Positions 1,196 to 22,751 of a stretch of 64,000 nucleotides of DNA are shown here, piece after piece. The DNA is taken from NCBI GenBank assembly GCA_038207265.1, contig JBBQZZ010000014.1, forward strand, positions 47,224 through 111,223, written 5' to 3'. The translations under genes and the position numbers were made by a program. Position 1 is the first letter of the stretch. Each line of letters opens with the position of its first letter. The notes beneath the pieces were generated by a model. It ran no database searches and had not been told where the DNA came from. It saw only the letters and a program-made list of their open reading frames with translations. The stretch comes from Chitinophagales bacterium. GTDB lineage: Bacteria > Bacteroidota > Bacteroidia > Chitinophagales > Chitinophagaceae.

Positions 1196-1600
1196 TTAAT
1201 TGTGTCTTTGGATTTCATCAATCATAAAATTTATTTTTTCAATGACGTTGTTCATGACTTGCATAATTTCATCATTAGCGAGCCTCATAAACTTTATACC
1301 CTCTTATTCAAGAATAGATTGTCTTTCTTTGTCTTTTTTTATCACATCAATCAAATCATGAATCGATCCATCAAACTCAATAACTAATTTCAATTGATGA
1401 AAGTAAAAATCAACAATATCATTTCCAATTGGATGTTGCCTTCGAAACTTTTGTCCTTTTGGTCTTGTTCGTAAATGCAACCACAAAATTCTTTCAGCAT
1501 CGGTCGGATTATGCCTGGGTTCCCTTGCTCTTTGGAAAATAAGCGGACCAGCACTATAAAACATTTCCTTTTTCACAATGAGGATTTTGATATAAGACAA
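1196..1600 (-). pseudogene. DUF559 (Vsr-like endonuclease fold) mini-gene interrupted by an in-frame TAA
   Basis: The track ORF 1304..1600 ends ...DKERQSILE at a TAA (complement of 1304..1306). Reading on in the same frame gives EGIKFMRLANDEIMQVMNNVIEKINFMIDEIQRHN, then a stop at 1196..1198. This matches the usual DUF559 C-terminus (G-I/Y-K-V/F-x-R-F/L-x-N-x-E-I/V). The N-terminal part has the typical ...TDAERILWLHLR...KFRRQHPIG..IVDFY......IEFDG..H motif string. Confidence 0.6.
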
Positions 1601-1638: not shown

Positions 1639-2079
1639 TTAGGGGGACAGGGGGTGAATACAGTACGTCACCACTCCCCAGATCGAAAACTCATTACATG
1701 CAGTATCTACTTCAACTGGCGACAACTTATTTGATTCAGGCAATAGCCTGATCTTGTTAAAAGTTTTTTCTAACCGGCGAATGAGCATTTCGCCATTCAG
1801 GATGGCAACTACTATTTTTCCATTGGTTGCTTTTAACGATCGATCCACTATCACAGTATCTCCATCAAATATGCCTGCAGCAACCATGGCATCACCCCGC
1901 ATACGCATAAAAAATGTAGCCGGTTTATTATGGATCAGCTGTTCATTTAAATCAATACCTCTTTCTGCATAATCATCAGCGGCTGCACCAAAACCCGTGG
2001 CATTGGCCGTTCTGATATGGTGCTGGTTAAATTGTTTGGAACCTTTGTAAGCAGCGCCAAAAAACAGTTCATCTTCCAT
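1639..2079 (-). CDS. umuD: UmuD-like S24 peptidase-fold protein (Pol V accessory subunit homologue) with substituted catalytic residues
   Basis: Aligns by eye to E. coli UmuD across ...GF....ADDY.E..IDLN..LI.....TFF....GD.M...GI.DGD..IVD......G.IV.A...GE.....L. It lies upstream of umuC on the same strand. Confidence 0.8.
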   Translation of the reverse strand: MEDELFFGAAYKGSKQFNQHHIRTANATGFGAAADDYAERGIDLNEQLIHNKPATFFMRMRGDAMVAAGIFDGDTVIVDRSLKATNGKIVVAILNGEMLIRRLEKTFNKIRLLPESNKLSPVEVDTACNEFSIWGVVTYCIHPLSP

Positions 2080-2095
2080 ATAAAAAGATTTTTTG

Positions 2096-2116
2096 TTTAC
2101 TAATATATTTAGTAAA
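2096..2116. promoter_or_regulatory. Perfect 21-bp palindrome TTTACTAA-TATAT-TTAGTAAA in the divergent umuD / 2H-phosphoesterase intergenic region (candidate operator)
   Basis: Read directly: 2096..2103 tttactaa, 2104..2108 tatat, 2109..2116 ttagtaaa (an exact reverse complement). The palindrome sits 17 nt from the umuD start (2079) and 36 nt from the start at 2152. Confidence 0.4.
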
Positions 2117-2151
2117 TTTATACTAAATTATTAATCATCTCAATTTTTTTT

Positions 2152-2763
2152 ATGCAGGCTTCTGTACTGACTATTCCTGGCTACCAGGTGAATGAATACC
2201 TGCTGGTATTGAATCCGCATGAAGAATTGCGCAATAAAATAAAAACTGTTAAGCAGGCATTTGCGGAGTCGTATAAAGCACCCAATGCGCTTTGGGGCAA
2301 ACCTCATATTACCCTTGTTAAATGCTGGCAATATGCTATGATGGAAGAAAGAATTGTGAACCGGTTGAAAACGGTGGCCATGGGATATCATGCCTTCAAA
2401 GTAGAACTGAAAGATTTTGGCAGTTACCCTACGCACACTATATACATCAATGTAACAACCAAAGATCCTGTCCGCAATCTTGTAAAACAGATCAAACCAT
2501 TTCAGCAATTGTTGAAACTGAACAATGATAACAAACCACATTTCCTGGATGAACCACATGTGATCATTGCAGGGAAACTCGTGCCCTGGCAATATGAAAA
2601 AGGTTGGCTTGAATACAGCCAGAAACATTTTACCGGCCGGTTCATTGCGGATAGTATGTTGTTATTACGGCGACCAGTAGGTGAAAAACCTTACCAAATA
2701 TTAGAACGGTTTGAGTTTATGAATTTACCTGTCGCTACCAAACAGGGAGATTTATTCGGGTAA
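2152..2763 (+). CDS. 2H phosphoesterase superfamily protein (LigT / 2'-5' RNA ligase-like)
   Basis: The first H-x-T-x motif is present (GKPHITLVKC). The second is degenerate (EPHVIIAG, i.e. H-V-I-I). Size (~200 aa) and motif spacing fit the family. It is divergent from umuD. Confidence 0.55.
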   Translation: MQASVLTIPGYQVNEYLLVLNPHEELRNKIKTVKQAFAESYKAPNALWGKPHITLVKCWQYAMMEERIVNRLKTVAMGYHAFKVELKDFGSYPTHTIYINVTTKDPVRNLVKQIKPFQQLLKLNNDNKPHFLDEPHVIIAGKLVPWQYEKGWLEYSQKHFTGRFIADSMLLLRRPVGEKPYQILERFEFMNLPVATKQGDLFG

Positions 2764-2900
2764 TGATGTTGGAATAATTAAAACACAGAGAATATAAAAG
2801 ACAAGGAGAAATACAAAGAAAAATTTGTTTAAAATTATTTGAACACTTCGGGGGTCATCGTCCGATGGTTCTTTGATCAAAAAAAATAGAAATTCACACA

Positions 2901-3314
2901 ATGACACAATATTTTAAGGAGGATGTTTTTAGTCCGTTGACAGAAAGGGAACAATGGCTGGGAACACAAATAATTGATAGCGCTATAAGTGTTCATAAAA
3001 TATTGGGACCAGGTTTGTTGGAAGCTGTATACGAAAAATGTTTTTGTGATGAGTTGGGAAAGAGAGCAATCCCATACACAAGACAACCAATGATAAAAAT
3101 AATGTACGATAACCTGGTTATAGACGAAGGTTTGCGAATGGATGTAATGGTAGATAACTTGATTATAATAGAATTAAAAGCACAGGACCATCAACATCCT
3201 GTCTGGAAAGCACAACTGTTGAGTTATTTAAAACTGAGTGGTAAAAGGCTTGGGTATATCTTAAATTTTCATGTACCATTAATGAAGGACGGAATCAGGC
3301 GAATGATACGCTGA
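2901..3314 (+). CDS. GxxExxY family protein (PD-(D/E)XK nuclease-like fold)
   Basis: The name-giving motif is present: ...HKILGPGLLEAVYEKCFCDEL (G-x-x-E-x-x-Y). It is followed by ...DVMVDNLIIIELKA... and ...AQLLSYLKLSGKRLGYILNF, typical of this ~130 aa family. Confidence 0.8.
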   Translation: MTQYFKEDVFSPLTEREQWLGTQIIDSAISVHKILGPGLLEAVYEKCFCDELGKRAIPYTRQPMIKIMYDNLVIDEGLRMDVMVDNLIIIELKAQDHQHPVWKAQLLSYLKLSGKRLGYILNFHVPLMKDGIRRMIR

Positions 3315-3383
3315 AGATAAATCTGGAGTAAGGGTGAGTTTGAACCTAGAGACACTATGAGTTGAAATACATGGACACAAAGA

Positions 3384-3643
3384 CACTGTGTGAATCTCTG
3401 AGTGCACAGTGTCTCAGTGGTTCAAAAAAACGCTGTGAATCTCCGTGTCCCAGTGTCTCAGTGGTTCAGCTCACACTGTGAATCTCTGTGTCCCTGTGTC
3501 TAAGTGGTTCAGCTCACACTGTGAATCTCTGAGTGCACAGTGTCTCAGTGGTTCAAAAAAACACTTTGAATCTCCGTGTCCCTGTGTCTCAGTGGTTCAA
3601 AAAAACACTTTGAATCTCCGTGTTCCCAGTGTCTCAGTGGTTC
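3384..3643. repeat. Six head-to-tail copies of a 43-47 bp unit (consensus approx CACTGTGAATCTCYGWGTSCMSWGTGTCTCAGTGGTTC plus an A-run or AGCT)
   Basis: Units start at about 3384, 3431, 3472, 3515, 3562 and 3606, as read from the sequence. Each ends in GTGTCTCAGTGGTTC (one copy has TAAGTGG). Confidence 0.9.
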
Positions 3644-3696
3644 ACAAGAAAAATAATACGGTTCAAAAAATATGTACGTACTCAAAAATTATTACA

Positions 3697-4806
3697 ATGC
3701 CAGGTAAACTTCAGCAAGATCATTTTAAAGTAACTGCTAAACCAAAAACTGAAAATGAACAATACAAAGCGGGTCGCGGGGCTCAATTCAATACCCGCAA
3801 TAAGTTCTTAAAAACAGAGAACACCAAAGAACATGTAGAAGGAATAGATGACTGGACGGAAGAATCATTGCCCACACAGTTTATAGAACAGGAGTCCAAA
3901 TCAATCGTTAATAAAATCGAAAGTCCGGATGTGGGCATGAGTTATAGCATGAACCCCTATGCCGGTTGCGAACACGGCTGTATTTATTGCTATGCAAGAA
4001 ATGTGCATGAATACTGGGGCTATAGTGCGGGAACCGACTTCGAACAAAAAATCATTGTAAAGAAAAATGCGCCGCAATTGCTCCGCAAGTTTTTAATGCA
4101 TCCCAAATGGAATTGTGCACCCATCATGCTAAGTGGCAATACAGACTGTTATCAACCCGCAGAACAGAAATACCGGCTCACCCGGCAATTGCTGGAAGTC
4201 TGCAATGAGTTCAACCAGCCGGCAGGTATCCTTACCAAGAATTCCTGGATATTAAAAGACAAAGATGTGTTGCAGGAAATGGCAAAAAAGAAATTGGTAT
4301 CGGCCATGGTCTCCATTACCTCTTTTAACGAAGACCTGCGCCGGGTAATGGAACCCCGCACTACTACAGCCAAACAAAAACTAAAAGTAATAGAAGAGCT
4401 GAGTAAATCCGGGGTACGCATGGGTGTTATGATGGGACCCATGATACCCGGACTGAACGAACACGAAATGCAACGCATTATGAAAGCAGCAGCTGACAAT
4501 GGTGCTACATTTACTGCCTATACTTTCATAAGACTCAATGGTGCAATAAAATTTTTATTTCATGATTGGTTATATAAGAACTTTCCGGACAGGGCAGACA
4601 AGGTATGGCACCTCATAGAACAGAGTCACGGCGGGCAAGTTAACGACACGCGCTATGGTGTGCGCATGCGTGGCGAAGGAAGTATTGCACAGATGGTACA
4701 ACAGCAGTATAAAAAATACGGAAAACTATATAACATGAATGCAGAAGAATGGAGTTTGGATACCAGTATTTTTCGAAGACCGGGGGCACAGGGAAAATTG
4801 TTTTGA
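3697..4806 (+). CDS. PA0069-family radical SAM protein (SplB/COG1533 DNA repair photolyase-like)
   Basis: The CxxxCxxC cluster is present in AGCEHGCIYCYARN, and the N-terminal YKAGRGAQFNTRNKF is typical of the PA0069 family. I moved the start to ATG 3697 (MPGKLQQ...). The 84 upstream codons of track ORF 3445 are simply the translated tandem repeat. Confidence 0.85.
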   Translation: MPGKLQQDHFKVTAKPKTENEQYKAGRGAQFNTRNKFLKTENTKEHVEGIDDWTEESLPTQFIEQESKSIVNKIESPDVGMSYSMNPYAGCEHGCIYCYARNVHEYWGYSAGTDFEQKIIVKKNAPQLLRKFLMHPKWNCAPIMLSGNTDCYQPAEQKYRLTRQLLEVCNEFNQPAGILTKNSWILKDKDVLQEMAKKKLVSAMVSITSFNEDLRRVMEPRTTTAKQKLKVIEELSKSGVRMGVMMGPMIPGLNEHEMQRIMKAAADNGATFTAYTFIRLNGAIKFLFHDWLYKNFPDRADKVWHLIEQSHGGQVNDTRYGVRMRGEGSIAQMVQQQYKKYGKLYNMNAEEWSLDTSIFRRPGAQGKLF

Positions 4807-4831
4807 TACAATTCTCAAACGCTCATTATTG

Positions 4832-4852
4832 AAAACCGGGATAACCGGTTTT
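4832..4852. terminator. Candidate bidirectional intrinsic terminator between convergent genes
   Basis: AAAACCGG-gataa-CCGGTTTT: an 8-bp stem (4832..4839 / 4845..4852) with A/T runs on both sides, located between 3697..4806 (+) and 4860..5129 (-). Confidence 0.5.
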
Positions 4853-4859
4853 CTAAATT

Positions 4860-5129
4860 TTATGCCGTATATCGTTTCTTCATTTCAATTCCTGCAAGAA
4901 TGCCACGAGCCTCTATAATTTCCCTGCATAGAAATTCAATCTCCGGTGCGTCCTGTAATATATTCAGCTCTTCCAGCATTTGTTTGAAAGTAGCAATTCT
5001 TTCCCGGTAATACACTTCCATTACTTCTATCGAATCTGCCATAACTGGTTTCACTGCAGGCGCAGTAAAAGAGGGGGTTCCAGTTTTAATGCTGGATTTC
5101 TTTGTGGTGGTTGCTAGCTCTTGTCTCAT
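4860..5129 (-). CDS. Hypothetical protein (89 aa)
   Basis: This is the only ORF in this gap and is convergent with the radical SAM gene. I recognised no motif. Confidence 0.35.
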   Translation of the reverse strand: MRQELATTTKKSSIKTGTPSFTAPAVKPVMADSIEVMEVYYRERIATFKQMLEELNILQDAPEIEFLCREIIEARGILAGIEMKKRYTA

Positions 5130-7950: not shown

Positions 7951-8204
7951 GAACCACAAAGGCACAAAGCCACAGAGGAGCACGGAGGATTATTTAAAAC
8001 GAAATGAACCACAAAGTCACAAAGCCACAGCGTAACACAGAGATTCGCTTATAATAACAGCAACTTATAAGTTACGCTCTGTGACCTCTCAATCCGAGTG
8101 TTTTCACTACTGGTAAAACCTCAAAATTGAAATATACTCTTTTTGCTTCCCGGGTTGTATAGAAATTTGTATCTCCCCCGTGTCTCTGTGACTTTGTGGT
8201 TCAA
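7951..8204. repeat. Gene-less set of the same repeat family: two forward copies and one inverted copy
   Basis: 7951..7987 is gaaccacaaaggcacaaagccacagaggagcacggag. 8006..8045 is gaaccacaaagtcacaaagccacagcgtaacacagagattc. 8175..8204 is cccccgtgtctctgtgactttgtggttc, the inverted orientation, followed by A8. These are reverse-complement relatives of the 3384..3643 unit. Confidence 0.75.
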
Positions 8205-8227
8205 AAAAAATTCCATGGTTCAATAAA

Positions 8228-22602: not shown

Positions 22603-22751
22603 CGACGGATAGTAAGGCTTGTTCAAAAAATTAAAGTTTAATATATAAAGGATTAATTGATTCAAGTATGAATCTCTGAAGTGATTTCAAATGTGGGAAC
22701 CTTAAACTTTCAACCCAGTGCTTCATTCGTATTTTTTAGACTACAAATAAA

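Follow-up and report, generated by a model that had tools for sequence, protein, structure and literature searches.

An old inserted cassette of a GxxExxY gene and inverted repeat arms at a LigT/radical SAM gene junction

The GxxExxY gene and the repeats around it

The window analyzed here is a 64,000 nucleotide stretch of Chitinophagales bacterium DNA (G000:C14:47224-111223), taken from a genome of 5.3 Mb with 39% GC. Near its left end a small gene of the GxxExxY family lies among palindromic repeats, and in an earlier note, made from the sequence alone, the two were taken for a mobile or selfish cassette. The question raised by this locus is whether gene and repeats belong together, how they came to lie between two protein-coding genes and whether the encoded protein acts on the repeats.

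The left host gene (2152..2763, plus strand) encodes a LigT-like 2H phosphoesterase (PF13563, E 1.9e-13), and its stop codon forms the left edge of the insertion site. The right host gene (3703..4806, plus strand) encodes a radical SAM protein (rSAM) of the PA0069 family (NF033668, E 8.8e-140). Between the two, on the same strand, lies a gene for a protein of 137 aa (2901..3314), whose assignment to the GxxExxY (PDDEXK_3) family was confirmed by HMM scores above the curated cut-offs (TIGR04256: 124.4 bits, cut-off 35, E 2.7e-36; PF13366: 120.5 bits, cut-off 22, E 6.3e-35).

In the whole window TRF detected one strong tandem array (3389..3644, period 44, 5.8 copies, 85% matches), so that the six-unit array described between the GxxExxY and rSAM genes is real. 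Its units (3386-3429, 3430-3472, 3473-3515, 3516-3560, 3561-3604 and 3605-3648), supported by TRF, the repeat families D1-D4 and matches to the repeat model R1, are reverse copies of the 3' arm and together span 3386..3648 on the minus strand, on which the family consensus TTTGAACCACnGAGACACnGnGACAC is read. All six match R1 with E values of 7e-11 to 5e-8. Units 1-2 and units 4-5, 131 nt apart, are 94% identical over 85 nt, indicating that part of the array arose from a three-unit duplication. A CRISPR array was considered and rejected, as the whole 44-nt unit repeats without unique spacers. The array also causes a false extension of the rSAM gene: the ORF 3445..4806 opens with a GTG at 3445 inside the array, and its first part (3445..3702, plus strand) is read through the repeats. 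Since the NF033668 match starts at residue 24 of the protein that begins at 3703 and relatives use the equivalent ATG, the ATG at 3703 is the true start. The spurious extension had thus been correctly recognized before, and it comprises about 86 codons, not 84.

Weaker copies of the repeat had been proposed on both sides of the gene. Taken alone, the upstream forward copy (2781..2820, plus strand) is not significant (R1 E 0.38; shuffle p 0.006-0.24, depending on the unit used), and the two forward copies after the gene (3339..3390, plus strand; earlier given as 3342..3386) are marginal in a 1.2-kb search with R1 (E 0.029 for 3340-3359, E 0.004 for 3376-3390). However, the upstream copy aligns to a clear arm, ACCACAGAGACACAAAGGCAGGGAG, in the metagenome contig L062, where it lies inside an 88%-identical spacer, as well as to the CACAGAG...GGAGAAATACA arm of the corresponding junction in G014 (L007), and the two copies after the stop codon correspond to clearer copies in L062. 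Because of this homology to clear arms in L062, all three are regarded as decayed arms. Strong forward arms occupy the position of 2781..2820 in two further relatives (L009 and L011). The inverted flanks of the window's gene score 22 (z 3-4), a low value that is due to the decay of the 5' arm, and this copy may no longer be bracketed by arms.

It had also been proposed that the array units are internally complementary and could fold into serial hairpins. This held for unit 1 (z -3.8 against shuffles) and unit 4 (z -2.3), whereas units 2, 3, 5 and 6 folded no better than shuffles. The forward copies and unit 1 together form a gene-less hairpin directly 3' of the GxxExxY stop codon (3336-3430: z -3.9 on the minus strand, z -1.9 on the plus strand), and the region 3315-3702 folds with z -5.0. 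A separate small GC hairpin with a T-rich tail (2848..2865, TCGGGGGTCATCGTCCGA TGGTTCTTTG) was seen downstream of the decayed 5' arm and ahead of the GxxExxY gene. It is kept in L062 and could terminate transcription of LigT.

The junction in related genomes

The rSAM gene was located in 32 of 41 related genomes, and LigT and GxxExxY genes were mapped around it. The rSAM proteins are 83-89% identical over most of the genus and 72-80% identical in four species. LigT adjoins rSAM in 17 of the 19 species of the genus in which both flanks were seen. A GxxExxY gene occupies the junction in nine species, to which G018 is added, whose assembly breaks at an arm, and is absent from it in eight. The empty spacers measure 45-133 nt (L010, L012, L013, L016, L017, L018 and L022, the last one from outside the genus). 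A further state is found in G014, where the 360-nt spacer (L007) has no gene, keeps a homologous 5' arm and has complementary outer ends. The cassette is therefore gained or lost as a block at a conserved gene junction, which provides an unusually clean natural series of empty, occupied, arms-only and arm-amplified states.

The nine junction proteins form one clade (98% support), to which neither the paralogues in these genomes nor the copies from other genera belong. In the rSAM tree, which is poorly resolved within the genus, all occupied junctions fall into one 96/98-supported clade of 16 species, and 4-6 changes are needed to explain their distribution. The most parsimonious history is a single gain and then several losses, the cassette having most simply entered the junction once, in the ancestor of part of the genus. 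The dN/dS ratio is about 0.1 across the junction orthologues and 0.09 for the sister pair L009/L011, with synonymous sites (dS) saturated, which shows that the protein has been maintained by purifying selection. Taken together, the locus is an old inserted cassette of a GxxExxY gene and inverted repeat arms that was vertically inherited as one unit, long kept by selection and repeatedly lost, and that shows no sign of recent movement. In the lineage of the window its 3' arm was amplified locally to six tandem 44-nt units and its 5' arm decayed. The idea of a mobile cassette thus stands for the insertion together with its arms, which the junction series and the single protein clade support, but not for current mobility, since near-identical copies are missing.

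The closest relative found is L062, whose GxxExxY protein is 89% identical and whose upstream spacer is the 88%-identical one mentioned above. On the 3' side of its gene two clear forward copies precede an array of at least four reverse units, within which the contig ends. The arm pairs of L009 and L011 measure 38 and 36 nt and reach scores of 56 and 47 (z 14-15). Arm-to-arm identity is 0.89 within L009 and 0.78 within L011, compared to 0.70-0.84 between species; concerted evolution of the two arms is modest and inconsistent between these two. In each occupied species the downstream units are different in number, from 1 to about 7, and in spacing, so that the variation in array copy number for which a comparison of strains had been suggested exists at the species level.

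The position of the array directly 5' of rSAM could also be read differently, namely as a leader or promoter region of the rSAM gene that carries, for example, repeated protein-binding sites. A reverse arm ending in ...CNGTGGTT (GTGGTT(C)AAAA) does lie 30-60 nt before the rSAM start in seven of the nine species, despite saturated dS. However, relatives have their rSAM gene behind a spacer of 45-133 nt without any repeat, copy number and unit sequence vary freely between species, and units of this kind are also found in other spacers, convergent ones included. No Bacteroidota-type TAnnTTTG motif was seen by eye in the units, and Rfam gave no family for 2000..5000 at E <= 1, only two matches at chance level; a sigma-70 promoter scan of the locus is uninformative for Bacteroidota. 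We therefore regard a cis-regulatory role of the array as very improbable.

Several neighboring observations concern the repeats themselves. In L061 (1180-2144), whose GxxExxY protein is 80% identical, complete hairpin elements lie on both sides of the gene, each consisting of a forward arm, a loop of roughly 25-35 nt and a reverse arm, and downstream they form a tandem series with a period of about 140 nt. The amplification unit can thus be a whole hairpin and not one arm alone. Contigs end inside arm arrays in L062 (601-837) and in G018 (C415 and C246); the repeats break assemblies, and copy numbers in drafts are probably underestimates. In G015 the LigT/rSAM spacer (L019, 239 nt) has no gene and contains the short repeats GAGTCAGG / GGTCAGGC and GCTCGTAGCTCATGGCTCGCAGCTCA. 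These differ from the arms, which suggests that another repeat type occupies the site.

The repeat family and its link to GxxExxY genes

The family of GAACCAC-type repeats proposed from the window was verified in the whole genome. The motif GAACCACNGAGANAC occurs 24 times against 0.1 expected, and iterated nhmmer gave 44 significant copies at 18 loci with the pattern TTTGAACCAC-nGAGACAC-nGnGnCAC. The consensus of the 44 copies (alignment A1) is TTTGAACCACnGAGACACnGnGACACAGAGGT; the arms are built of TTTGAACCAC followed by CACnGnG-type sub-repeats of roughly 8 nt. A degenerate copy that had been placed between wzm and wzt (22669..22701) went undetected with nhmmer at a threshold as loose as E <= 10. 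Eight of the 18 loci are inverted pairs, in which one or more forward arms and one or more reverse arms enclose 25-400 nt without a gene and the outer ends read TTTGAACCAC...GTGGTTCAAA. A gene-less inverted pair of the family is present in the window between convergent genes (7951..8205), with two forward arms and one reverse arm (matches at 7951-7978, 8005-8030 and 8178-8205). Over 201 nt it is 71% identical to G000:C2:721642-721836. Tandem arrays elsewhere in the genome comprise nine forward and two reverse units with a period of 47 (C15:93927-94486) and eight units with a period of 55 (C3:31035-31440). The arms of the cassette hence belong to a dispersed palindromic repeat family, which elsewhere consists mostly of gene-less inverted pairs and tandem arrays.

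Loci of the family fill their spacers up to 3-30 nt from the neighboring ORFs, which are co-directional, convergent or divergent. Between loci, the identity of copies does not exceed 76-88% over 46-203 nt; as high identity is confined to within arrays, nothing indicates recent transposition. No target-site duplication was recognized in the flanks of the repeat loci, and when the nine large neighbors of repeat loci were checked by eye for TonB-dependent receptor genes, only two looked like receptors. The C15 locus and a locus on C1 (798751-798982), both gene-less and in divergent spacers, have 203 nt in common at 76%, including a core of roughly 70 nt (GGGCATACAC.AACATGTTTTGCTATTG..TCAAAAT) between inverted arms. 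Each of the nine tandem forward units of the C15 element is a GAACCAC...GTGGTTC hairpin followed by a T-run.

Within the genome, the expected association of these repeats with GxxExxY, DUF559 and four-helix-bundle genes failed to appear: one of the 18 loci adjoins a GxxExxY gene, 17 are without one, and no locus lies next to a four-helix-bundle or DUF559 gene. The other GxxExxY loci (C22:23976, C28:14580, C2:596857, C2:583080 and a fragment at C10) are none of them at GAACCAC loci, and the same holds for the five genes of four-helix-bundle type and for the remaining DUF559 genes. Arms unrelated to GAACCAC were found instead, of GCAAAG type at C28, of GTCTGAA/GATT type at C22 and C2, of TGTGACAA type at a four-helix-bundle gene and of G5/C5 type at the DUF559 pseudogene of the window.

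The cassettes at C28 and C2 lie inside operons, their neighbors being named by eye. The GxxExxY gene at C28 (14480-15000) lies between preT-like and preA-like genes, contains two in-frame stops and has the GCAAAG-type arms in inverted orientation. On C2, one GxxExxY gene lies between trpG and trpD (596800-597280) and a frameshifted one upstream of hisG (583000-583450). In the window, the DUF559 pseudogene (1226..1600) is interrupted by an in-frame TAA and has umuD and umuC as neighbors on its two sides. The inverted flanks of this pseudogene are of the ACCCCCTGTCCCCC... type (score 28, z 7.5) and unrelated to the GAACCAC family.

Across the bacterial family, by contrast, the enrichment of arms at GxxExxY genes was recovered. 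Inverted flanks scoring at least 34 were present at 12 of 38 GxxExxY loci versus 0 of 400 random genes, and AACCAC upstream together with GTGGTT downstream was present at 4 of 29 GxxExxY loci in other genera versus 7 of 1968 control genes, the gene calls of the controls being simple long-ORF calls. In several relatives (L059, L039, L046 and L034) the arms directly adjoin the start and the stop codon. At different genomic sites the type of arm goes with the clade of the protein, and the outer arm ends (AACCAC) are conserved in sequence across loci.

Among species, the repeat family ranges from 0 to 59 matches regardless of gene presence, and sister genomes can differ strongly (59 in G001, 10 in G004). 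G064 has eight exact motif copies without a PF13366 match, and G014 has 19 model matches and a best GxxExxY protein of 43% identity, whereas G008, G010 and G007 kept the junction gene and have zero family matches. Over 19 species the link between repeat abundance and junction gene is loose, with exceptions both ways and with relatives counting as non-independent samples. Gene and arms thus travel together, and the repeats can persist, perhaps multiply, without the junction gene. Since the gene-less L007 junction keeps a homologous arm, at least some gene-less pairs are derived from cassettes.

These data bear on the possibility that gene and repeats are functionally unlinked. GAACCAC would then be a general intergenic palindromic repeat, REP-like or terminator- or insulator-like, that expands in roomy spacers, and the GxxExxY insertion would merely have made such a spacer. 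That most loci lack the gene and fill spacers in all orientations close to the ORFs, that G064 and G014 have the family without GxxExxY, that its abundance varies among species regardless of the gene, and that the other cassettes of the same genome use other arms is what such hitch-hiking would produce. Against it stand the strong enrichment of inverted and AACCAC/GTGGTT flanks at GxxExxY genes in other genera, the arms that abut ORF ends and follow the protein clade, and the arm kept at the gene-less L007 junction, and we consider coincidence of this kind unlikely.

A putative nuclease and its arms

Thousands of GxxExxY genes exist in Bacteroidota, Cyanobacteria and other phyla. In the literature searched, GxxExxY was rarely named, and nothing was found on the present arrangement of gene and arms; the function of PDDEXK_3 has been given as unknown (PMC3424549). 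The protein of the window has a GLLEAVY motif at residues 38-44 and an intact D81/D85...E91-x-K93 motif, of which D81, D85, E91 and K93 are invariant columns in an alignment of 36 homologues. No solved structure was found in a sequence search of the PDB. With the AF2 model (pLDDT 84.9, one of five models being confident), Foldseek returned weak generic PD-(D/E)XK matches only (E >= 0.01, TM about 0.4); these were lambda exonuclease, Cas4 and tRNA-splicing endonucleases and give no hint of specificity.

The closest known systems were compared. Ssn proteins are small GIY-YIG ssDNA nucleases flanked by hairpin repeats which they cut (PMC11893778). The Ssn NTS/SRM arrangement resembles the present locus in its small stand-alone nuclease gene with a hairpin repeat often on both sides, in the dispersal of the repeat in many gene-less copies and in homologues that differ together with their repeat variants (PMC11893778). 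It differs in that Ssn is a GIY-YIG enzyme that cuts its repeat, whereas the cassette protein is a predicted nuclease of the PD-(D/E)XK fold (PF13366), and in that the present genome has only 18 loci, not hundreds. A GIY-YIG nuclease flanked by its own repeat was not found, as the small GIY-YIG genes of the genome do not adjoin repeat loci. With REP/REPIN-RAYT the family shares short palindromic extragenic repeats in inverted, REPIN-like pairs and clusters, an abundance that varies strongly among relatives and a flanked gene of nuclease type, which in classical REP-RAYT is a single-copy one. However, the gene flanked here does not encode a Y1 (HUH) transposase, the repeats lack a GTAG-type REP head, and their arms are built of sub-repeats of roughly 8 nt. 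The genome has two or three Y1 (PF01797) genes, and no repeat locus is near those at C4:214916, C3:398823 and C1:7206. RAYT and small GIY-YIG genes were accordingly rejected as alternative partners of the repeats. MITE and TIR elements, internally deleted derivatives of autonomous elements, share the terminal inverted repeats with conserved outer ends, the gene-less derivatives and arms that remain after gene loss, as at L007. They differ in that the present family has neither a transposase nor a recognized target-site duplication nor near-identical dispersed copies.

Another precedent is the intervening sequence (IVS) in helix 45 of the 23S rRNA of Coxiella burnetii (PMC4990558), in which complementary arms enclose a small ORF within a transcription unit of the host. 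Packaging of this kind is met repeatedly with GxxExxY, four-helix-bundle and DUF559 genes. The present cassette is not located in a 23S rRNA helix; it lies in the spacer of a protein-coding operon, between two protein-coding genes, and its arms form a dispersed, sequence-conserved and tandemly amplified family. By analogy, the arms might pair in a LigT-GxxExxY-rSAM transcript and RNase III might cut the stem, which would set the cassette mRNA free or insulate it and make the insert tolerable to the host operon, the array being extra stem. The layout is that of ORF-bearing IVSs such as the one of Coxiella (PMC4990558). In addition, arms abut the start and stop codons in the four relatives named above, cassettes lie inside the operons trpG-trpD, preT-preA and umuD-umuC, the plus strand of the array has no intrinsic terminator-like site, and 3315-3702 folds well (z -5.0). 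In the arm mismatches of 18 cassettes, however, no strand bias was detected (G.U 37, A.C 35), and since selection on a stem should favor G.U, the lack of an excess counts against a sense-strand RNA stem. The 5' arm in the window is decayed, yet the gene is under selection. Furthermore, gene-less copies occur in all gene orientations, divergent spacers included, and the outer ends (AACCAC) are conserved in sequence across loci, for which a pure stem has no need. We consider an RNA element of this type unlikely, to about the same degree as hitch-hiking.

The conserved outer arm ends fit recognition of a sequence better than a pure stem. The explanation that we favor over its rivals joins the history of the cassette described above with a mechanism that we infer, in which the small putative nuclease would recognize its own arm repeats when these adopt a hairpin or cruciform form, just as Ssn and RAYT proteins recognize theirs. 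Tandem amplification would result from breakage and repair at the arms, as would internal deletion to gene-less hairpins and, on rare occasions, the spread of gene and arms as one unit. The model draws on the precedent of Ssn, the invariant catalytic motif, the presence/absence series at the junction and the enrichment of flanking arms. Against it stand the 17 of 18 loci without a nuclease gene and the unrelated arms of other GxxExxY genes, as well as the absence of near-identical copies at different loci, the modest concerted evolution and the decayed 5' arm. The family is moreover present without the gene (G014, G064) and the gene without the family (G008, G010, G007). Weighing both sides, we hold this combined explanation to be about equally likely to be right or wrong.

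If the nuclease does act on its own arms, the GxxExxY family would be a parallel to the Ssn ssDNA nucleases described recently, and one common origin of intergenic repeats, of ORF extensions called in error and of breaks in assemblies would be explained. The arm types specific to protein clades would then represent a large natural library of programmable nuclease specificities. If it does not, the locus is a well-documented but ordinary relic. A general statement, that GxxExxY proteins are site- or structure-specific nucleases targeting their own flanking arms, a PD-(D/E)XK counterpart of Ssn and RAYT that generates arrays, gene-less hairpins and occasional spread of gene and arms, appears improbable at present. 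What the locus contributes is the junction series and the link between cassette arm, tandem array and gene-less hairpin derivatives.

A different arrangement was observed at C22 (23700-24480), where a GxxExxY cassette with the arms TTGTCTCAATCGCAGATTCAAAGGATT / AATCCTTTGAATCTGTGATTCAGACAA lies at the 3' end of a histidine-kinase gene. The C-terminus of the kinase (SYDIVKAHGGEIKVET...IIQLPI) is complete upstream of the cassette, and a diverged second copy of it (SYDIVKVHGGELKVETEEGIGSKFIIRLPIA*) follows directly after the 3' arm, so that it looks as if this cassette arrived with a replacement gene end.
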